DNA of 53,981 bases from IMG/VR virus record IMGVR_UViG_2529292919_000008; one strand, 5' to 3'. This document shows positions 9,593-46,655 of the stretch, one piece after another. Positions within the stretch are counted from its first letter, which is position 1. Each line of letters begins with the position of its first letter. The position numbers and the translations under genes were made by a program. Source of the stretch: a virus (taxonomy: Duplodnaviria > Heunggongvirae > Uroviricota > Caudoviricetes). A model generated the notes under the pieces. The model searched no databases and was not told where the DNA came from. It was given only the letters and a program-made list of their open reading frames with translations.

Positions 9593-10249
9593 TCAGCCGC
9601 CGGACGCACTGCCGTAGTTCACTCCGGTGATCACCGCCACCGCCGCGGTACGGCGACGACGCCAGTTGATCCAGCGCTCCGCACGGATGGCCACGCTGCC
9701 TGTCTGGAACATGGAAACCAGCTCCACCGGGGACGGCGTGGTACTGTCGCCGGTCGGCTCAGACTGCATTTCCAGTGATGCCTCGCGGGACATATCCACT
9801 GCCACGCCTCCGTCATCCGCCAGATAAATATCCGGGGCATTCACCAGCACCAGCTGGTCACCCACGTACTGGGAGACAATCACCGGCAGCCCCTGGAAGG
9901 AGCCACCCAGCAGGGTCATGTCCGGGTATTCCTTCTGACCCAGCGCATTTTTACGCATGGACAGTGCCAGGGCATTGGTGCTGGACATCAGCCAGACCGC
10001 ACCGGTGGGCTGCAGGTTTGCTGCCACAAACTGTCCAAACGCAGCCTCTGCATCCGCATCCGGGTTACCGGTTGATGCCGTGCCCTTCACATCATGGGTG
10101 ATGGACGCCGGGGAGACATCTGCCACTGCGGCTTTTTTCGGGTCCACAAAGTCTGTATCCAGACGCGCCACCACCGCTTCCGCCAGCGCATTACGGACCA
10201 GTGCATCAGCAGCCGGACTGGAAAAACGGATCAATTCTTCCGTCAGTAC
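9593..10249 (-). pseudogene. 3' fragment of the HK97-type major capsid gene, split by the Mu-like insertion
   Basis: Translation ...LTEELIRFSSPAADALVRNALAEAV...FQTGSVAIRAERWINWRRRRTAAVAVITGVNY looks like an HK97-fold capsid C-terminus. The frame continues upstream only into Mu-end sequence and resumes in frame at 46661. Confidence 0.75.
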
Positions 10250-10410
10250 TGTGGGGTAGTGATCAATTCTGGGCGGAGTTAGTGCAGCCTGGTAGAACCG
10301 GCAAGCCTTGTGTGGCGCGGGGTGTGGTGATTTAGCGTGATTCTGGGCGGATTTGTGAGAAATGACCAAAAACGCTTTTTTTTGCGCTTTTTTCTGGGCG
10401 CTTTTGATCT
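10250..10410 (+). promoter_or_regulatory. Left end (attL) with three transposase-binding-like repeats
   Basis: TTCTGGGCG occurs at 10267, 10341 and 10391, and the same motif recurs at the right end. The third copy is preceded by GCGCTTTTT, as in the right terminus. Confidence 0.6.
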
Positions 10411-13688: not shown

Positions 13689-14582
13689 ATGAGTTTAATT
13701 ACGCAATTAAATGACGTAATGGCCCGTCGCGGCTATACGCAGACCCACGTCGCCCGTGCTATTGGTCGTAGCAGCGCCGTTATCAGCCAGTATTTGCAGG
13801 GTAAATATCAGGGCGATATGTCTGATATTGAAGAACGCATTTCTGCCTTTGTGACCCGTGAGCGGGAAAAAGAAAACAGCCGCCGTATTAAAGCAAAGTT
13901 TGTGACCACCGGTATGGCTGCCAAAGGACTGGAGGTGCTGGCCTACGCTCACCTGGAATGTGAAATCTGTGTGCTGTATGGCGCAGCAGGTCTTGGCAAA
14001 ACAATGATTCTGCGTGAATACGCCGCCAGAAACCGGGATGCGGTCCTGATTGAAGCCGACCCGGGCTATACAGCCAGAACACTGCTTGAGGAGCTGTGCC
14101 GCCAGCTGGGGGTAAAAGTTCGCGGCAATATCCACGAACTGATTGATGCATGTGTGCGAGAACTGCGTGATTCCGGTCGCCTGCTGATGGTGGACGAGGC
14201 TGAACTGCTCCCCTATCGCGCACTGGAGGTTCTGCGCCGTCTGCATGACAAAGCGGGTATCGGGATTGTCCTGGCGGGTATGCCACGCCTTCTGATTAAC
14301 CTCAAGGGACGTCGCGGTGAGTTCGCCCAGTTATACAGCCGTGTGGCGCTGGCGCTTAACCTGGGCGATACGCTGTCGCAGGAAGATTTTAACCAGATAG
14401 CTACCGGGCTGATGCCGGAAGCAGCAGAACCGGAAATCAGCGAGGCGCTCTACGCACGCTCACTGGGTAATGCCCGCCGCCTGTTCAAACTGGCGCGCGG
14501 TGTGTACCGGATTTGTGATATCAGCGATGCACCGGTCAGTGTGCAGGCCATTGATAAATTCGCAGAAATGTTAATTCACTGA
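13689..14582 (+). CDS. B: Mu B-like AAA+ ATPase (transposition target DNA activator)
   Basis: 297 aa. N-terminal HTH region, Walker A GAAGLGKT and Walker B-like LLMVDEAE. Directly downstream of A. Confidence 0.85.
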   Translation: MSLITQLNDVMARRGYTQTHVARAIGRSSAVISQYLQGKYQGDMSDIEERISAFVTREREKENSRRIKAKFVTTGMAAKGLEVLAYAHLECEICVLYGAAGLGKTMILREYAARNRDAVLIEADPGYTARTLLEELCRQLGVKVRGNIHELIDACVRELRDSGRLLMVDEAELLPYRALEVLRRLHDKAGIGIVLAGMPRLLINLKGRRGEFAQLYSRVALALNLGDTLSQEDFNQIATGLMPEAAEPEISEALYARSLGNARRLFKLARGVYRICDISDAPVSVQAIDKFAEMLIH

Positions 14583-14596
14583 TGGAGAACAAGACG

Positions 14597-14821
14597 ATGG
14601 ACAAGCAGACCATTAACGCCGTCCGTTCCCGTGCCCGTGTGGCCATCCACACCACTGGCGGTCGTGTAACGGGACAGCATCACCGTTTACCTGTGGTTTA
14701 TGCCTGCCCGCCCGTGGGTGGTCCTGTATGGCCGGTAACGGAAATCATCCAGACATTCAGCGGCCTGCGCCGCGTGGTTAAAACGTCCTGTATCGACGGC
14801 TGTACCGTCGTATGGCAATGA
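14597..14821 (+). CDS. Hypothetical early-region protein
   Basis: ORF with GGAG about 9 nt upstream of the ATG, in the early operon after B. Confidence 0.35.
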   Translation: MDKQTINAVRSRARVAIHTTGGRVTGQHHRLPVVYACPPVGGPVWPVTEIIQTFSGLRRVVKTSCIDGCTVVWQ

Positions 14822-14833
14822 GAGGAAATCAGA

Positions 14834-15049
14834 ATGGCGGTTAAATTAGAAGTAATTATCTATACCAATGAAAAAGGCGCGACTTTAACCCAGATTACAG
14901 GGAGTTATTCGAAGGACGGCACTTCCGAAAGGGAGTTTCAGGTGGCAACAGGATTACATGATGTTATCAAGGAAGCACTGAGAAATGACTACAACGGCGT
15001 GAATATTTTTTCTGAAAACGTTGCGCCTCGCGCACATAACACAAATTAA
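14834..15049 (+). CDS. Hypothetical early-region protein (AT-rich gene)
   Basis: 71-aa ORF with a ribosome-binding site. Composition visibly more AT-rich than its neighbours. Confidence 0.35.
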   Translation: MAVKLEVIIYTNEKGATLTQITGSYSKDGTSEREFQVATGLHDVIKEALRNDYNGVNIFSENVAPRAHNTN

Positions 15050-15078
15050 TCTGTAAATATCACTGAGGTAATTTAATT

Positions 15079-15723
15079 ATGACGACTGAAAATAAAGTTA
15101 AGCAATACACGAAAACTCAAGCGCCTGAAGGTTACTGGGTGGATGCCCGTGGCGTAATGACACCTGAAAGCCTTATCAAAGATATTGACCGCGACCGCGA
15201 GCAGCTGGTCGGTGAGCTTGTGGAGATGGTGATTGCTGCCTCCGCCTCACTGCGTGAACTGAAACTGCGAGCGTTTGGTGATATTCAGGCGTTTATTGAC
15301 CTGTCGGCAGAGAAATACGGCGCTGTGAAAGGCGGTAAAAAAGGGAATATCACGCTGTACAGCTTTGACGGGCGTTACAAGATTCAGCGCGCCATGCAGG
15401 ACCGTATCGCGCTTGATGAACGCATTCAGACCGCGAAGGCACTGATTGATGACTGTCTGGCTGACTGGACGGAAGGAGCGCGCCCTGAAATTAAAGCCAT
15501 CATCAGTGAAGCATTCAGCACGGACAAGGAAGGCAACATTAACACCGGGCGCGTTCTGGCTCTGCGTCGTCTCGATATTACGGAGGAACGCTGGGATAAC
15601 GCCATGAAACTGATTGGTGAAGCCGTCCAGGTGGTTGGCAGCAGAAGCTATATCCGCGTGTATGAGCGCGTCGGTGATTCTGATGAATACCGCGCAATCC
15701 CGCTTGATATTGCAGGGGTTTAA
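15079..15723 (+). CDS. Mu-like early protein, DUF3164-like
   Basis: 214 aa. Resembles a family I recall from Mu-like prophage early regions; assignment from memory. Confidence 0.4.
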   Translation: MTTENKVKQYTKTQAPEGYWVDARGVMTPESLIKDIDRDREQLVGELVEMVIAASASLRELKLRAFGDIQAFIDLSAEKYGAVKGGKKGNITLYSFDGRYKIQRAMQDRIALDERIQTAKALIDDCLADWTEGARPEIKAIISEAFSTDKEGNINTGRVLALRRLDITEERWDNAMKLIGEAVQVVGSRSYIRVYERVGDSDEYRAIPLDIAGV

Positions 15724-15724
15724 C

Positions 15725-15958
15725 ATGCATCAGGATATCAAAGAGTACAGAGCCGGAAATAGTTGCGCGGCGTATTCGCTGGGCGCGTCCAGAGCAGAAC
15801 AACGCGGCGATTATGCCGAGGCTGAAAAGCTGTGGCGTAAGGCAGCGCAAAGCCCGTGTAGCACCCTGCGCCGCATCTGGGCAGAACACCGGGCACAGTT
15901 CTGTGCCAATGCTCACCAGAAAGGATGGAAGCCGATTCATGAACGCGAAACGCTTTAA
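15725..15958 (+). CDS. Small Cys/Trp-containing early protein (ANR-like?)
   Basis: 77 aa from MHQDIKEYRAG. Weak family recollection only. Confidence 0.3.
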   Translation: MHQDIKEYRAGNSCAAYSLGASRAEQRGDYAEAEKLWRKAAQSPCSTLRRIWAEHRAQFCANAHQKGWKPIHERETL

Positions 15959-16130
15959 TCAGTTATATCCGCCTGGTACTCGTTTCATGCACATTGCACA
16001 TCAGGCGGTGCGTGGTGGTCGGGTGGTAAAAACTGTTGCACCGGCCAGAGATTTTAAATGTGGTTGTGTGGTTGAAATTAATGTCGAGCCTTATTTCGTA
16101 AAAGTCGAAACACTGAAAGCACCGCATTAA
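15939..16130 (+). CDS. Hypothetical small early protein
   Basis: 63 aa from MNAKRFNQLYPPG. Overlaps the upstream stop. Confidence 0.3.
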   Translation: MNAKRFNQLYPPGTRFMHIAHQAVRGGRVVKTVAPARDFKCGCVVEINVEPYFVKVETLKAPH

Positions 16131-16210
16131 TTTAATTTGTTTTTAATTGTTATTTAAAACAGGCGTAAACCCGCCGGGGCTGGCTTACGCCTGAATCTGA
16201 GGGATTCATT

Positions 16211-16927
16211 ATGGAAAATAAAAGCAAATATATCGCCAAAATTAAAAAACTGTTACGCCTTGCCAGAGGAACATCAAGCCCGGAAGAAGCCGCTAACGCT
16301 ATTGCAAAAGCCCAGGCTTATATGCGCCAGCATGGCATCAGCGAAAACGACGCGGAATTGTTCGACATTCAGGAAGCTGCCAGCGCGGGTGCGCCGAGTG
16401 ATGCCAGTACGCCGCCGCGTTATATGCACATCCTGTGTGACCTGGTCTGTAAAGCCTTCGGTGTCGAGTGTTACATCTCAGGTGAATACCGGGCTTCTGG
16501 TTCACTCAAACGTTACGTTCGTTTTTATGGTCCTGACAGCCGCCCGGAAATTGCGGCATACGCGTTTGATGTGCTTTCCCGTCAGATGATGGCTGAACGT
16601 AAAAAATATCAGGATAAACACTGCAAACGTTGCGGTCCGTCCACGCGGGTAGCCCGTGGCGACCAGTTCTGCGAAGGCTGGGTCTTTGGTGCCCGTGATG
16701 TCATTGCGGTGTATGACGTCTCCCCGGAAGAAAAAAGCCGCCTTGAGCTTTACAGAAAGAACCTGCACAGCACTAAGGGGCTGCGCGACGGGGATATGCG
16801 CACAGCTAAAGCGTGCCGGGGTGCAGAGTTTGCCGCTACAGCCGGTTTTATCGCCGGGAAAAACGCCAGGCTGCATCAGGGGGTTAATGGTCAGAGCAAC
16901 AGACCGCTGGCACTGGGGAGGGTGTAA
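16211..16927 (+). CDS. DUF2786-like protein with Cys-rich C-terminal region
   Basis: N-terminus KYIAKIKKLLRLARGTSSPEEAANAIAKAQAYM fits the DUF2786 pattern. Central CKRCGPS...FCEGW cysteines. Confidence 0.45.
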   Translation: MENKSKYIAKIKKLLRLARGTSSPEEAANAIAKAQAYMRQHGISENDAELFDIQEAASAGAPSDASTPPRYMHILCDLVCKAFGVECYISGEYRASGSLKRYVRFYGPDSRPEIAAYAFDVLSRQMMAERKKYQDKHCKRCGPSTRVARGDQFCEGWVFGARDVIAVYDVSPEEKSRLELYRKNLHSTKGLRDGDMRTAKACRGAEFAATAGFIAGKNARLHQGVNGQSNRPLALGRV

Positions 16928-16929
16928 CG

Positions 16930-17157
16930 ATGGCTTTTAAACTTCTCAGTGTTACCGAAGCAATATACCAGCCTCCCGGAGAACGCCACGAATACAGGAT
17001 GAATGACGGTAGCGCAGCGGTTGAGTTCCCTAAATATCCGGGGGCTTCCCGGTGGCGGTTCTATGACAGTGCGGGACGCCGGATTATTAAAAGAACCGTG
17101 CACAACGCCATGAAAGCCGCTGTAGAACGTCACAAAAGGAGGTTTAACTGCAAATGA
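16930..17157 (+). CDS. Hypothetical small early protein
   Basis: 75-aa ORF; start overlaps the upstream stop (translational coupling). Confidence 0.3.
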   Translation: MAFKLLSVTEAIYQPPGERHEYRMNDGSAAVEFPKYPGASRWRFYDSAGRRIIKRTVHNAMKAAVERHKRRFNCK

Positions 17158-17384
17158 ATATTGAATTTTATGACTATGGGGTTACTGCAAAAATCATTGT
17201 CACCTGCTGGTTCTGGGAGTTCCGTCGCTATTGCCGGGTTGTGGATGCGGCGCTGTTTGCGGCCCCTGAAGTGCACCATCAGAGCGGTGGCGGTCTTTTA
17301 ATGAGAACCGTCATCTACGGTAAGACGGTCCCGATGTTACGGGCGTTTAAAGTGGCAAAACAGGAGGCTGGCAATGGTCATTGA
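17154..17384 (+). CDS. Hypothetical small early protein
   Basis: 76-aa ORF with ATGA overlap to the upstream gene. Confidence 0.3.
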   Translation: MNIEFYDYGVTAKIIVTCWFWEFRRYCRVVDAALFAAPEVHHQSGGGLLMRTVIYGKTVPMLRAFKVAKQEAGNGH

Positions 17385-17664
17385 TAAAACGATAACGATA
17401 GATGTGGCCATGAATACAGGTCTGGCGCTTATCGGTTATGGCTATATCACTTTTATGTCATTCAGGTGGTTGATTTCTTCGGTCTTTAAACAATGTGAAA
17501 AACGTCGCTGCAAAGACAAGCGCGTGAAGGCACTAAATGCGTTTAATGACGCTTTTGATATTGACCGTATGCAACAGGGCGACCCGGCACGCGTAATTAC
17601 CCGGGGAGATGTCGTGATTTTGGTATACCGGAGTGAAAAAAATGAGCAGGAGGCGGCGCAGTGA
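17374..17664 (+). CDS. Hypothetical small membrane protein
   Basis: 96 aa with one hydrophobic segment (GLALIGYGYITFMSFRWLISSVF). Confidence 0.3.
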   Translation: MVIDKTITIDVAMNTGLALIGYGYITFMSFRWLISSVFKQCEKRRCKDKRVKALNAFNDAFDIDRMQQGDPARVITRGDVVILVYRSEKNEQEAAQ

Positions 17665-17821
17665 ACCAGCAAACCAGAATAAGCGATAAGAGTCTGACCA
17701 GACTGATTGCCGATGCGGACAAGGTGCTGGAGCGGAACACCCCGGTTGCCGATGAGGAATGGTGGCAGGATTTCCGGGCCGCAATGCTGGAACTTCAGGA
17801 ACGTCGTCGGGAGGAGTTGAA

Positions 17822-18088
17822 GTGAGTGGATCAAATTGTCGAATTAATGGCAATCGAATAAAGCCGTGTGCTGCATTGGCAAAGTCTCTTGAGCGTGATG
17901 CTGAATGCTCAGTAAGAAAAGGCTTACTGCTATACAAAATCTGGAATGAGAGTTTAACCCGTGGACCTGATTTGGTGATGTTGCGTTCCGGTGAGTTTTC
18001 TAAATCACCTATTCGAGTCTCATTTTGCCCGTTTTGTGGTGAAAGTCTGAAAACATGGAAAAAGGAGGCAGCCAGTGAGCGAGATTAA
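17822..18088 (+). CDS. Hypothetical protein with CPFCGE zinc-ribbon-like motif
   Basis: GTG start overlapping the stop of an unlisted 54-codon ORF (17661-17825). Confidence 0.3.
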   Translation: MSGSNCRINGNRIKPCAALAKSLERDAECSVRKGLLLYKIWNESLTRGPDLVMLRSGEFSKSPIRVSFCPFCGESLKTWKKEAASERD

Positions 18089-18932
18089 CTATCAGGCACT
18101 GCGTGAGGCGGCAGAGGCCGCGAAGGGGGATACGACGTGGCAGAACCTACAGGCTTTTCGTGCTGTGGCTACGCCGGAGGTTGTGCAGGCGTTGTTGGAT
18201 GAAAACGAAAGACTGTGTCGCGATCTGATAGCTCGTAATGGTGAGGTTGAAGGGCTTCGGAAGTGGGCAGAAGAACTGGAGGCACGGGAAATAAAACCAG
18301 CCAAAGGCGAAGTTCTTGTCGTTGTATCTGGTTTTACTGGTTGCGGAAAAAGCGCCATTGCCGGGGAAATAGAAATCGCGATGAAGGCTATTGGTGTACC
18401 GGTTAAGTGGACTAATGGCGATGCAGAAAAGCGCATGACTGGCGCTGACTGGCTGACAGCAATTGAGATGTACAAACCAACTGTGCGCATCGTGGAAACT
18501 AATGTGCCACTGCCGCAGGCATTCGCATCAAAGGAGAGTGATATGACCACTATAACCAGAGAAAACGCGGAGATTAAATCATTCATCACTGGTTTCCTGA
18601 GCGACCCGGCGCACGATAACCAATCTTCAAACAGCCTGCTTGCCAATGTGTTTCGTATCGCGCTGGCATCGCTGGAAGCAGAGCCGGTGGCATGGATGCG
18701 TGATGACGCAGATGGTCGTGAGTATAACGCTCGCAACGAATTTTCTTATGGAGGGAGAGGCATTCCACTCTACGCTGCCCCGCCAGCAACGGTGGTGCCG
18801 GAATTTGAAACATGGTTTAACAGCCAGGAGTCAGGGAGGAGTATATGCAGCACACAGATTCGTCGTTCCCTTCAGGAAATTTCATGGAACGCCTGCTGCG
18901 CCGCCATGCTTCAGGGTAAGGGAGGTGAGTAA
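18075..18932 (+). CDS. Ead/Ea22-like protein with Walker A P-loop
   Basis: N-terminus YQALREAAEAAKGDTTW...ATPEVVQALLDENERL resembles the Ea22-like family. It is followed by a beta-strand plus P-loop, EVLVVVSGFTGCGKSAIAGEI (GxxxxGKS). Confidence 0.45.
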   Translation: MSEINYQALREAAEAAKGDTTWQNLQAFRAVATPEVVQALLDENERLCRDLIARNGEVEGLRKWAEELEAREIKPAKGEVLVVVSGFTGCGKSAIAGEIEIAMKAIGVPVKWTNGDAEKRMTGADWLTAIEMYKPTVRIVETNVPLPQAFASKESDMTTITRENAEIKSFITGFLSDPAHDNQSSNSLLANVFRIALASLEAEPVAWMRDDADGREYNARNEFSYGGRGIPLYAAPPATVVPEFETWFNSQESGRSICSTQIRRSLQEISWNACCAAMLQGKGGE

Positions 18933-19290
18933 TGCGTGTGGCATGTATCGGCTTGTTACCGTATCCGACTCGATTTTGGGCTTCTGCGCTAATTGCAAAG
19001 CCGCATGTCCTGATGGCTGACAGCATCATCCCGGCACCGAAACGCCGTACAGGCATTGCGGCGGCGAGACGAGCAGCAAAGAAACGCAGGAGAACAAAAC
19101 GATGAAAAATCGTAAGGCAAAAATTCTGTTAGCTCGCAGAAACGGTGTTGGGGTCTGGCGATGGTTGAGGATTAGTAACAGACGAGTGAGGTTGACGGGG
19201 TGTTGCGGGGTGATGTTGCACAGCTGTTGCAAAAAGCCCAGCGCGGCGCAAAACCGCAGGAAAAATCACGGTATGTAAAGGAGGTGCCAG

Positions 19291-19695
19291 GTGAAGAAAA
19301 TGGTTTTTGTGGCGGCATTGCTGACCGTTACCCAACAGGCTTCAGCAGTTATTGTGGCATCTGCCGCTGCGACTACGGCTGCCGCAGCTGCTGCGAACTC
19401 TGCGAATATCGCAAGCCAACAGGAGCAGGACGCTGCTAACGCATCAGCCAGTGCTCTCCCGATTTTTGTTAAGGGCAGTAAGCTAAATCTGGGGTTCATA
19501 ACGTGCGGTAAGCGTTCTTATGAAGCTGTAGGCTCACTGGGATGTACGGTATATGGCGACAGTGAGAGCAGAGAAATTCCATGGAAAACGTGGCCCGGAT
19601 ACGTTCTTGGTTCGAAGCTCCCGGCCAGTTATGAGGTAAACGCCGTGTCGTTTGATCACTATAACGGCGTGGCAACTGTCTATTTCACATACTGA
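19291..19695 (+). CDS. Secreted protein with signal peptide and Ala/Thr-rich linker
   Basis: MKKMVFVAALLTVTQQASA signal-like N-terminus, then low-complexity AAATTAAAAAANSANIAS and a Cys-containing C-terminal domain. Confidence 0.45.
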   Translation: MKKMVFVAALLTVTQQASAVIVASAAATTAAAAAANSANIASQQEQDAANASASALPIFVKGSKLNLGFITCGKRSYEAVGSLGCTVYGDSESREIPWKTWPGYVLGSKLPASYEVNAVSFDHYNGVATVYFTY

Positions 19696-19736
19696 GTTCC
19701 GGCATGAAATTTTCTGAATCACGGAGTAACAACCTG

Positions 19737-19922
19737 ATGAAAACTATCACCGTAACGGTTGAAATCGACGTTCCTGATAACGCAACGGACAATGATATTG
19801 CTGATTTTGTCGATGTCGAGTACGGGGAGTGCGGAAAAATGGCACTTGATAACCCATGCCGGACAGATGGAACGGAAATACTCGATGCCAGATGGGAGCA
19901 CGGCCCCGATTACGCGGGTTGA
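19737..19922 (+). CDS. Hypothetical small acidic protein
   Basis: 61 aa from MKTITVTVEIDVPDN. Confidence 0.3.
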   Translation: MKTITVTVEIDVPDNATDNDIADFVDVEYGECGKMALDNPCRTDGTEILDARWEHGPDYAG

Positions 19923-19941
19923 TTGAACAGTAATCAAACGC

Positions 19942-19986
19942 AGACCAAAACATGTGTTTTGGTCTGCCAAAAGTAGTGTTTTGGTC
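19942..19986 (+). promoter_or_regulatory. Operator-like palindrome AGACCAAAAC-N4-GTTTTGGTCT plus extra GTTTTGGTC half-site
   Basis: Perfect 10-bp inverted repeat at 19942-19965 and a third half-site at 19978-19986, ending 3 nt before the ATG at 19990. Confidence 0.45.
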
Positions 19987-19989
19987 ATT

Positions 19990-20268
19990 ATGAAGATTGA
20001 ACAAATCGGAATGGCAGCTTTCAGGCAACAGGCTGAAAGCGGTGGCGTGGATGAGTTCGTCGTGCAGCGGTTCGGTGGTGTGTATCACCTCTTCGCTGTG
20101 AATCGCCGCGCTGGGGTGTCCTATTTTCTACAGGAACGCCGTGGCGATTACAAGACGTGGCTGTCTCTTGATCGTGCCGCCGCGTTCTTGTCAGGGATTG
20201 GCGTTTCACGTTTTACCGTACGTTTTGAGGATAACAAACATGCTGAAAAAGATGATCGGGGCCATTAA
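19990..20268 (+). CDS. Hypothetical protein downstream of operator-like palindrome
   Basis: 92 aa from MKIEQIGMAAFRQQ. 3' end overlaps the gemA start. Confidence 0.35.
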   Translation: MKIEQIGMAAFRQQAESGGVDEFVVQRFGGVYHLFAVNRRAGVSYFLQERRGDYKTWLSLDRAAAFLSGIGVSRFTVRFEDNKHAEKDDRGH

Positions 20269-20638
20269 AGCCGGTCAGGCGTATCTGGGGTGGGATGATG
20301 CCCTTTATCGCCAGACGCTGGCCCGCCTGACCGGTAAAACCAGCACCACACGCTGCAATCTCAATGAACTGCGCATCATCCGGGAATACATGCACGAACA
20401 GGGATTCCCGCGCAAGGCACCCGCCGGTAAAGGTCGCCGCCCCCGTGTTGCAATGAGCAGAAAATCGGTATTATCCAAAATTGAAGCGTTGCTGGCTGAT
20501 GCCGGTCGTTCCTGGGGGTATGCGGAAGGACTGGCATCTCACATGTATAAGCAACATGTGATCGAATGGCTGACGGATGAACAGCTTTTCGGGGTGATGG
20601 TGGCGCTGGTTAAAGATTCAAGAAGGAGGAGTAAATGA
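20240..20638 (+). CDS. gemA: GemA-like regulatory protein (Mu gp16 family, DUF1018)
   Basis: ...AGQAYLGWDDALYRQTLARLTGKTSTTRCNLNELRIIREYMHEQGF... resembles Mu GemA. Located just before Mor, as in Mu. Confidence 0.65.
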   Translation: MLKKMIGAIKAGQAYLGWDDALYRQTLARLTGKTSTTRCNLNELRIIREYMHEQGFPRKAPAGKGRRPRVAMSRKSVLSKIEALLADAGRSWGYAEGLASHMYKQHVIEWLTDEQLFGVMVALVKDSRRRSK

Positions 20639-21138
20639 TTAAAAAACGGTATTTTCTTTTAGTAGCGTTCATTTTGTCTTTTCCTGCCGTTGCTGAATGG
20701 CACACATGGGTACAAAAAGATGCTTTTGATGATCAACAAACAGCCATGATGGTGGGTATTGGAACAATGGATTTTGGGATTGCTTTAGACTGTTCGAATG
20801 ACTCACTATTCGCTGGTATTACAAAAGAAACAGATAAAGTTAACATTGCGTTATTCGGTTCATCAAAAGATTTAATATTTAGGATAGACGAATTTCCAGC
20901 AGTAAAGACCACAGGGGTACTCGCTGCACGAAATGAAAAAATGTATATTTATAAAATAGAGGACGAACAAAAAATCAAAGAGTTGTTATCTTATCTTCGA
21001 AAAGCCCAAAAACGTGTTTTAGCTGGTGTAAAAGAACCGAGTGAAGAACGAGGCGCATCGTTTAATGTAACACCGACAGGTTCAACAACCGCTGTTAATA
21101 AATTTATCAAAGCCTGTAACATCAAGATTCCAGAGTAA
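20635..21138 (+). CDS. AT-rich moron: secreted protein with signal peptide
   Basis: ATGA overlap with the gemA stop. Signal-like MIKKRYFLLVAFILSFPAVA then EW. Codon composition visibly AT-rich against GC-rich flanks. Followed by an intrinsic terminator. Confidence 0.5.
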   Translation: MIKKRYFLLVAFILSFPAVAEWHTWVQKDAFDDQQTAMMVGIGTMDFGIALDCSNDSLFAGITKETDKVNIALFGSSKDLIFRIDEFPAVKTTGVLAARNEKMYIYKIEDEQKIKELLSYLRKAQKRVLAGVKEPSEERGASFNVTPTGSTTAVNKFIKACNIKIPE

Positions 21139-21145
21139 CTTAATA

Positions 21146-21174
21146 GCCGCCCCTGCCATGTAGGGGCTTTTTTG
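21146..21174 (+). terminator. Rho-independent terminator after the moron
   Basis: GC stem (GCCGCCCCT / AGGGGC) followed by TTTTTTG. Confidence 0.6.
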
Positions 21175-21236
21175 TGGTCTGTACAGGCGATCATGTATGG
21201 CTATAATAACAGTAAGTTACTACCGGAGACGCCATC

Positions 21237-46569: not shown

Positions 46570-46655
46570 TTAGCGTCCAATTCTGGGCTTTTTGGTTGCG
46601 CTCTCTCCGCCCAGAATTGTGCGCCAATTAGCCCAGAAAAAAACGCGAAGTTACA
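46570..46655 (+). promoter_or_regulatory. Right end (attR) with transposase-binding-like repeats
   Basis: TTCTGGGC at 46581-46588, inverted CGCCCAGAATTG at 46608-46619 and GCCCAGAAAAAAACGCG at 46631-46647. Element ends ...TTACA at 46655. Confidence 0.6.

Follow-up and report, generated by a model that had tools for sequence, protein, structure and literature searches.

Introduction

Transposable phages related to Mu carry a set of small, coupled and mostly non-essential early genes between the transposition gene B and gemA, which in Mu constitutes the semi-essential region. Here we describe the region occupying the same position in a Mu-like prophage of Escherichia coli contained in the IMG/VR record IMGVR_UViG_2529292919_000008, a stretch of 53,981 nucleotides of Caudoviricetes DNA (hereafter referred to as the window), where 17 genes, named g1 to g17, lie between the stop codon of B (14582) and the start codon of gemA (20240). 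The region had been singled out in an earlier note, made from the sequence alone, as larger than that of Mu and as the most likely place in the element for uncharacterised functions.

The early modules of several described elements resemble that of the window, while Mu's own does not, its homology with the window in this region being limited to Kil (remote) and GemA. The prophage located in eutC of the enteropathogenic E. coli (EPEC) O127:H6 strain E2348/69 displays the order repressor, ner, A, B, kil, DUF3164, rnr, g5, DUF2786, g7 and g8, followed further downstream by g17, gemA and mor, and the backbone proteins of prophages of this type are 76-100% identical to those of the window. It differs from the latter in the absence of g15 and g16, in a shorter Ea22-like gene, and in an additional gene on the minus strand, located between g5 and g6. 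The 5.66-kb region is not clearly covered beyond 80% in any E. coli record, the highest coverage being about 80%, at 93.6% identity. Phages B3 and BcepMu share with the window a DUF3164 protein (g3 is 60% identical to B3 ORF6 and 68% to BcepMu gp05), GemA and Mor at the end of the module, and the absence of Gam; furthermore, DUF3164 of B3 is directly followed by a DUF2786-type gene whose product is 34% identical to g6. The modules of both phages are, however, much shorter, and have no ANR, Kil, DUF4752 or Ea22-like module, BcepMu carrying SSB and HU genes instead.

Gam proteins of phages lambda and Mu are the known phage protectors of linear DNA ends and inhibitors of host nucleases. With regard to regulators, members of the ANR family (AraC negative regulators) act against AraC-type activators (Santiago et al., 2014, 2016, 2017). 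The EPEC member of this family, Rnr (RegA-negative regulator), is a partner of H-NS and Ler in a two-hybrid assay and represses the type-3 secretion island known as the locus of enterocyte effacement (LEE), with more than 500 genes changing their expression (Rodriguez-Valverde et al., 2023; PMC10148876). In this literature Rnr is treated as a virulence regulator: phages are not mentioned throughout the 2023 report, and the 2014 ANR paper places the Citrobacter rodentium copy in a 'predicted phage-encoded region', with nothing further on phage.

Layout of the region between B and gemA

Taken together, our results indicate that the region is very probably the accessory part of the early operon of a 36.4-kb Mu-like E. 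coli prophage, composed of a conserved backbone and an exchange island. The main leads that it offers are the alternation between DUF3164 and Gam and the phage context of the ANR regulators, the region itself being ordinary. The gene order corresponds to a Mu-like early operon, with the repressor, Ner, A and B upstream, and GemA (20240..20638; Pfam PF06252, E 7.9e-18), the right-hand landmark just past the end of the region, and Mor (PF08765, E 1e-6) downstream; the RefSeq names of the counterpart genes in close E. coli prophages agree with these assignments. By BLASTP, the kinship of the element to Mu appears distant: Ner displays 43% identity (E 1e-17), the ATPase B 33% (E 8e-21), and the transposase A 21% over 616 aa (E 7e-8).

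The genes are all encoded on the plus strand and range from 54 aa (g10) to 285 aa (g12), in agreement with the many small, coupled open reading frames (ORFs) of the earlier note. The profile search that it had called for was carried out, and all 17 genes matched a PHROG family, with E values from 4e-27 to 3e-91; they are therefore real phage genes and not chance ORFs, and the long antisense ORFs within g3 and g12 are shadows. Nine junctions overlap along the stretch from B to gemA, and just three gaps are longer than 40 nt. Overlaps of 1 nt are found at B/g1 (TGATG) and g12/g13 (TAATG), of 4 nt at g7/g8, g9/g10, g10/g11 and g13/g14, and of 11-29 nt at g4/g5, g8/g9, g11/g12 and g17/gemA. The GC content is about 51% for the region, falling to 43-45% in g5, g9 and g11, and to 41.2% in g2, the gene that had been pointed out as AT-rich (14834..15049; 71 aa; phrog_7438, E 1.5e-48; no assignable function).

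The interval from B to gemA is indeed larger than in Mu, with 5.66 kb and 17 genes versus 3.94 kb and 11 genes. For a broader comparison, 80 DUF3164 loci from species-representative genomes were used, in 70 of which the span between the 3' ends of DUF3164 and gemA was measurable; at 4,915 bp, the window exceeds 98.6% of these 70 related loci (median 2,185 bp). Since the same span covers 3.9-5.0 kb in the five closest E. coli relatives, the size of the region is typical of the E. coli lineage.

Because strong terminators are absent from the region and its genes are mostly translationally coupled, the 17 genes following A and B would most likely be expressed as one polycistronic early transcript upon induction or infection. 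No strong plus-strand terminator was found within 14582-20268, the first one being located at 21149, and the search for internal promoters of rnr or g15 returned fewer sigma-70-like sites than in shuffled sequence, none of them convincingly placed. Other searches were likewise negative: Rfam yielded no family over the whole window, NCBIfam gave no match above cut-off for the 16 ORFs other than g4, and a PDB sequence search with g3, g6 and g12 returned nothing below E 0.2.

Host-interaction genes, which the earlier note had expected in this place, are represented by g1 and g4. The former (14582..14821; 79 aa, or 74 aa from the alternative start at 14597) matched phrog_2679, 'Kil protein for bacterial septation inhibition', with E 8e-38, and cross-hit phrog_2743 (E 0.005), the family of Mu Kil, which in turn cross-hit phrog_2679 at 9e-5. 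Directly compared by BLASTP, g1 and the 74-aa Mu Kil gave E 7e-4, and both genes are located directly after B. In sequence family, in length (about 75 aa) and in coming first after B, g1 thus agrees with Kil, and it is likely a cell-division or septation inhibitor; it is 99-100% identical in the five E. coli relatives. From its family annotation and position, this Kil protein would block division of the host.

DUF3164 and the Gam slot

The earlier note had recognised no Gam-like protein, and our searches agreed: neither the Pfam family PF07352 nor a Gam PHROG was detected among the 17 ORFs between B and gemA, no Gam Pfam was present in gemA, g19 or mor (g21 was without Gam under NCBIfam and PADLOC only), and a tblastn search of the whole window with Mu Gam gave a best E of 0.3. 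This absence is better explained by the gene that occupies the slot of Gam, namely g3 (15079..15723; 214 aa), which matched the DUF3164 family PF11363 at 265 bits (E 4.6e-79) over profile positions 1-193 of 194. Across Mu-like phages, DUF3164 is far better conserved than the transposase, and the family is widely distributed, numbering thousands of proteins from proteobacterial transposable phages and prophages. The literature searched yielded no functional study of DUF3164 or DUF2786.

The 80 DUF3164 loci and a set of 80 Gam loci, the latter mostly close relatives of Mu and D3112, were scanned with local HMMs. DUF3164 was found in 78 of the 80 loci of its own set and in none of the 80 Gam loci, whereas Gam (PF07352, phrog_491) was found in 79 of its own 80 and in none of the 80 DUF3164 loci. 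The early region was covered in both sets, as GemA was detected in 70 and 69 loci, respectively. Furthermore, the exchange is visible within three phage backbones. B3 carries DUF3164 (ORF6), ORF7 and ORF8 where phage H72 carries Gam (gp07), gp08 and gp09, between flanks 98% and 83% identical; HKPH_J3 carries DUF3164 (11), 12 and 13 where JBD30 carries Gam (gp13), gp14 and gp15, with flanks 96-100% identical; and Mannheimia phage 3927AP2 carries DUF3164 (gp07) and gp08 where Haemophilus phage SuMu carries gp07 and Gam (gp08), a 63-aa gene (61% identity) and an ANR gene being common to both. In addition, in a published study of roseophages, the Mu-like phages bearing DUF3164 were without Gam, and the DUF3164 protein was detected in virion preparations.

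The distribution and the slot swaps suggest that DUF3164 sits in the slot of Gam as a replacement by an unrelated protein. Homology between the two families, as distinct from a functional analogy, was rejected, as the hhalign comparison of their alignments gave a probability of 0.3%. The AF2 model of DUF3164 was of moderate confidence (pLDDT 76, pTM 0.49), and a Foldseek search with this model against BFVD returned no match at E <= 0.001, members of the family being likewise missed. Judging from the replacement in the slot, DUF3164 would supply the role of Gam, most simply by shielding the ends of linear phage DNA from host exonuclease.

We advance as a tentative proposal, possible but short of probable, that DUF3164 is a functional and unrelated replacement of Mu Gam and, linked to this, that the 'anti-virulence' ANR regulators are at root early genes of Mu-like phages. 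If so, DUF3164 would be a third phage end-protector or host-nuclease inhibitor, structurally new, besides those of lambda and Mu, and the primary job of ANR proteins would perhaps be the neutralisation of H-NS-family silencers on behalf of the phage, their effects on virulence being a by-product. In any case, with DUF3164 and Gam alternating within three phage backbones, a large DUF family gains a concrete, testable hypothesis, and the many Mu-like phages 'lacking Gam' are accounted for.

Some additional features were observed beside the slot. HKPH_J3, which has DUF3164 and no Gam, contains a DUF2786-type gene (locus L093, 8491-9162) that is 32% identical to g6 and absent from its close relative JBD30; H72 contains both Gam and a DUF2786-type gene, so that DUF3164 and the latter are not strictly linked. 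Three phage records apply the label 'host nuclease inhibitor' to small ORFs (63-92 aa) that adjoin the DUF3164/Gam slot (L175, 4546-4737, and L176, 4928-5119, both of 63 aa and from Pasteurellaceae; and HKPH_J3, L093, 7151-7429). The HKPH_J3 ORF, the one of the three that was scanned, had neither a Pfam family nor a BLASTP match to JBD30 Gam, and this label may be an annotation carry-over.

Gene g4 and the ANR family

Gene g4 (15725..15958; 77 aa) was the only one in the region to pass an NCBIfam cut-off, with 57.3 bits against NF033650 (cut-off 32). The ANR family consists of small helical proteins of about 60-80 aa, and g4 was assigned to it by its score above the curated cut-off and its length of 77 aa. 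Over its whole length, g4 shares 95% identity with the coding sequence 2721409-2721642 of E2348/69, which has the same neighbours and coincides exactly in its coordinates with the rnr locus (E2348C_2635) of PMC10148876; therefore, g4 is the orthologue of the published Rnr. Most genes of the region are without assignable function, as the earlier note had anticipated, but this part of its expectation does not hold for g4.

In contrast to its treatment in the virulence literature, Rnr appears here as one case of a recurrent Mu-like early gene located beside DUF3164 or Gam. Of the 80 species-level loci, 28 had an ANR gene a short way downstream of DUF3164, in Enterobacterales and Pasteurellaceae alike, and on re-scanning all ten genes tested exceeded the curated cut-off. 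On these sequence comparisons, ANR is a recurrent early gene of Mu-like prophages, and the reported range of the family, 'Enterobacteriaceae and Pasteurellaceae', may largely mirror these elements. The extracted loci with ANR genes fall within L012-L091, with others in L175 (5686-5832) and L176 (6006-6254). An ANR gene also adjoins Gam in Haemophilus phage SuMu (gp09), where it is annotated as hypothetical only.

By extension from the 95%-identical EPEC orthologue, for which this has been shown, the Rnr of the window would bind H-NS-family and AraC-type regulators and rewire host transcription. H-NS is known to repress the early promoter of Mu; for this reason, Rnr may aid the phage by relieving H-NS-type silencing of the phage itself. 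Rnr, which has been studied for the control of virulence in EPEC and Citrobacter, belongs to the early operon of a transposable prophage, and this origin bears on how deletion phenotypes, strain-to-strain differences and horizontal spread are to be read. One such consequence concerns the adjacent gene g5 (15939..16130; 63 aa; phrog_5591, E 5.9e-41), whose start overlaps the end of rnr by 20 nt, both in the window (15939-15958) and in locus L007 (5857-5876): owing to this overlap, the published start-to-stop replacement of rnr in EPEC also deletes the start of the g5 homologue.

Conserved backbone and exchange island

Backbone and island were separated by means of a protein identity matrix between the window and the five E. 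coli prophages. Genes g1, g3-g8, g17 and gemA were conserved at 76-100% identity, whereas g2 and g9-g16 were divergent, replaced or absent. About half of the genes of the region are conserved backbone, not accumulated cargo. The earlier description of this region as a place where genes accumulate fits the island g9-g16 and does not hold for the remaining half or so.

Within the backbone, g5 displays 81-98% identity in the five relatives and 47% to its counterpart in a Mu-like phage of Klebsiella, with homologues in 34 of the 80 DUF3164 loci. It is followed by g6 (16211..16927; 238 aa), a basic protein (pI 9.4) with DUF2786 and DUF7168 domains, by the basic g7 (16930..17157; 75 aa; phrog_9400, E 2.8e-40), which is 93-99% identical in the relatives, and by g8 (17154..17384; 76 aa; phrog_1001, E 1.1e-35), with 76-95% identity. 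On the far side of the island, g17 (19990..20268; 92 aa; phrog_7844, E 4.5e-62) overlaps gemA by 29 nt and is 99-100% identical in the five relatives. Its assignment as ParC was discarded, the match being weak (17 bits against an NCBIfam cut-off of 95). As for g2, which lies within the backbone stretch, four relatives share it at 85% identity and a 38% variant takes its place in E2348/69.

The island begins with g9 (17374..17664; 96 aa; DUF4752, PF15944, E 4.4e-41), which has an N-terminal hydrophobic helix (hydropathy peak at residues 16-34) and is missing in strain F163. Next, g10 (17661..17825; 54 aa; phrog_14672, E 6e-34) ranges from 65% to 98% identity in the relatives, or is absent, and the Cys-rich g11 (17822..18088; 88 aa; GC 43%; phrog_4030, E 7e-37) has a single homologue of 50% identity, in one of the five. 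DNA-level matches to sequenced phages within the region are confined to g12-g14. The product of g12 (18075..18932; 285 aa) is a mosaic Ead/Ea22-like protein, with an N-terminal Ea22-like coiled coil (PF13935 over residues 2-71; 42.8 bits against a cut-off of 27, E 9.6e-11), a middle part of about 70 aa with a Walker-A-like GFTGCGKS motif, and a C-terminal domain common to other phages; 14 PHROGs matched separate segments of it, and its middle and C-terminal part (from 18273) displays 94% DNA identity to phiV10 and O157 typing phages. A P-loop NTPase was considered and rejected, since AAA_16 and APS_kinase scored far below cut-off and the segment of about 70 aa is too short for an NTPase.

The Ea22-like genes are accompanied by two genes for very basic proteins (both with pI 12), g13 (18932..19105; 57 aa; phrog_13831, E 4.5e-37) and g14 (19102..19278; 58 aa; phrog_1380, E 3.6e-28), with 79-85% DNA identity to Shiga toxin (Stx)-converting phages, P1 and RCS47. 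In phiV10, size-matched genes are located in the same position (p49 for g13 and p50 for g14), p48 being Ea22-like. The Stx-phage match spans the L0069/L0068 junction of 933W, extending into L0068, in the exo-xis region. This exo-xis (ea/b) region of lambdoid and Stx phages is the closest described counterpart of the triad, as an Ea22-like gene with two small ORFs recurs there (phiV10 p48-p50, 933W L0069-L0068) at 79-95% DNA identity. Unlike in those phages, the triad of the window is located inside the early operon of a transposable phage and not between exo and xis, and its g12 is a different mosaic of segments.

Downstream of the triad, g15 (19291..19695; 134 aa; phrog_8805, E 6.5e-79) is present in three of the five relatives, and g16 (19737..19922; 61 aa, or 72 aa from the start at 19704; phrog_8773, E 8e-47, residues 12-71) in one; in comparison with g13 and g14, the latter is strongly acidic (pI 4.1). 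The right edge of the island is marked by a hairpin (19940..19967) with a near-perfect 12-bp stem, GCAGACCAAAAC...GTTTTGGTCTGC, with an RNA fold of -30.1 kcal/mol (z -4.5), kept in all five E. coli relatives despite differing upstream genes. A third copy of TTTTGGTC abuts the start codon of g17, which has no Shine-Dalgarno sequence. The element at 19940-19990 could act in processing, attenuation or translational control, or be a recombination boundary.

From this pattern of presence and identity, g9-g16 is read as a hypervariable island that trades cassettes with lambdoid, P1 and phiV10 phages. It would take in cassettes from unrelated temperate and virulent phages, its cargo here being DUF4752, the Ea22-like triad, the exported protein and the acidic protein. 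The island would be a defined exchange site with a hairpin-marked right edge, at which transposable, lambdoid, P1-like and even virulent phages swap cassettes, and a sensible target for screens of host-takeover or anti-defence activities.

Counter-defence genes, which the earlier note also expected in this place, lead to a first alternative: the region would be chiefly a counter-defence island, with g16, g13, g14, g2, g11 and g12 as candidate inhibitors of restriction, abortive infection and other anti-phage systems. The variation of g9-g16 among near-identical prophages is typical of anti-defence loci, cassettes are common to unrelated phages, and the 61-aa g16 has, with its pI of 4.1, a composition common in DNA-mimic inhibitors, although composition by itself is weak evidence. 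PADLOC-DB v2, which covers defence systems, gave no defence component for 20 proteins, its sole match being a stray one of g7 to 'E2' (E 0.003), and none of the libraries used, none of which holds anti-defence families, provided a functional match. Moreover, the conserved backbone that makes up about half of the genes is not variable cargo. We therefore consider this alternative unlikely, and a counter-defence role of the region stays a conjecture.

A second alternative centres on export. The earlier prediction that 19291-19695 encodes a secreted protein was borne out by sequence reading and a hydropathy scan: g15 starts with MKKMVFVAALLTVTQQASA/V, a signal peptide of the Sec type whose 19-residue hydropathy peaks at 1.88, and continues with a linker rich in Ala and Thr and a C-terminal domain with two cysteines. 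Together with g19, which lies outside the region between gemA and mor (20635-21138; 167 aa; phrog_19473, E 1e-85), it might serve superinfection exclusion or receptor masking, and part of the region would then act to protect the lysogen or infected cell and not to aid replication of the phage. A signal peptide and a pair of cysteines occur in each of the two proteins; the g15 family comprises 69 protein clusters, all of them enterobacterial and one bearing the name 'Prophage exported protein', and the C-terminal domain of g15 is found again in the virulent coliphages Av-05, KW1E_UTAR and KLB16/22; and g19, with a GC content of 36%, is absent from the five relatives, in the manner of a recently acquired moron. 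However, neither shows homology to known exclusion proteins, a promoter of its own was not detected upstream of g15, and genes of early operons are normally silent in lysogens, all of which makes this explanation improbable. Finally, the notion that the region is the canonical semi-essential set of Mu in the same order, diverged past easy recognition, agrees with Kil being first and GemA last but can hardly be sustained, given that no window protein matched the PHROGs of Mu gp6-gp14, that Mu gp6-gp15 had no BLASTP counterpart here (none below E 0.05; gp15 by BLASTP alone), the remote Kil link being the exception, that Gam is absent, and that the DUF3164, ANR, DUF2786, DUF4752 and Ea22-like domains are absent from Mu.

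The favoured reading of the region, as the accessory part of an early operon with a backbone and an exchange island, has points of its own to answer. The operon structure and its timing are deduced from sequence only, and the link of g1 to Mu Kil is remote (BLASTP E 7e-4). The units swapped at the Gam slot are cassettes of two or three genes, so that the equivalence might reside in a neighbouring gene, and the counts of 0/80 do not amount to 80 independent observations. Lastly, the phenotypes of Rnr arose in uninduced EPEC lysogens, which is hard to reconcile with strict repression of the early operon and implies that expression is leaky or separate.

The Mu-like element and its site of insertion

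The ends of the Mu-like prophage were fixed by alignment of the window with related E. coli prophages, giving an element of 36,406 bp at 10250-46655. Homology begins exactly at 10250 (left end TGTGGGG) and the right end (...GTTACA) stops at 46655, the termini being of the TG...CA type, and a 5-bp target duplication, AGTAC, is found at 10245-10249 and 46656-46660. In-silico removal of 10250-46660 rejoined an uninterrupted minus-strand ORF of 645 aa with Peptidase_S78 and Phage_capsid domains, which indicates that the transposable phage inserted into a gene of another prophage, the one encoding its protease-capsid fusion. The flanks of this interrupted prohead-protease/major-capsid gene (9593-10249 and 46661-47941, minus strand) belong to that second prophage, of higher GC content, which the insertion probably disables.

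The sequenced phages nearest in transposase are Pseudomonas phage VW-6B and Mu-like phages of Klebsiella, Yersinia and Pasteurellaceae, at 40-49% identity. Near-identical prophages are common in E. coli, where at least a partial DNA match was found in 1,568 of 5,426 complete genomes. Their insertion sites vary: hyfB, phnJ and eutC are interrupted in relatives, and one adjoins yfcC.

At the right end of the early genes, g19 was found in the window only among the loci compared, and had no match in the phage collection; it resembles a moron of recent acquisition, and the relatives carry other genes in the slot where it lies. A strong terminator hairpin with a T-run (21149-21167) lies directly after it, and a promoter-like TGTACA-16-TATAAT (21180-21207) just upstream of mor. 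With this terminator and promoter-like site, mor may be outside the early transcript here, unlike in Mu.

Insertion into a resident prophage was also observed elsewhere, as two records of Stx-converting phages (LC727881.1 and LC727895.1) are annotated with an inserted Mu-like phage, whose transposase is 44.5% identical to that of the window; together with the present case, these records suggest that the landing of Mu-like phages in other prophages is not rare.

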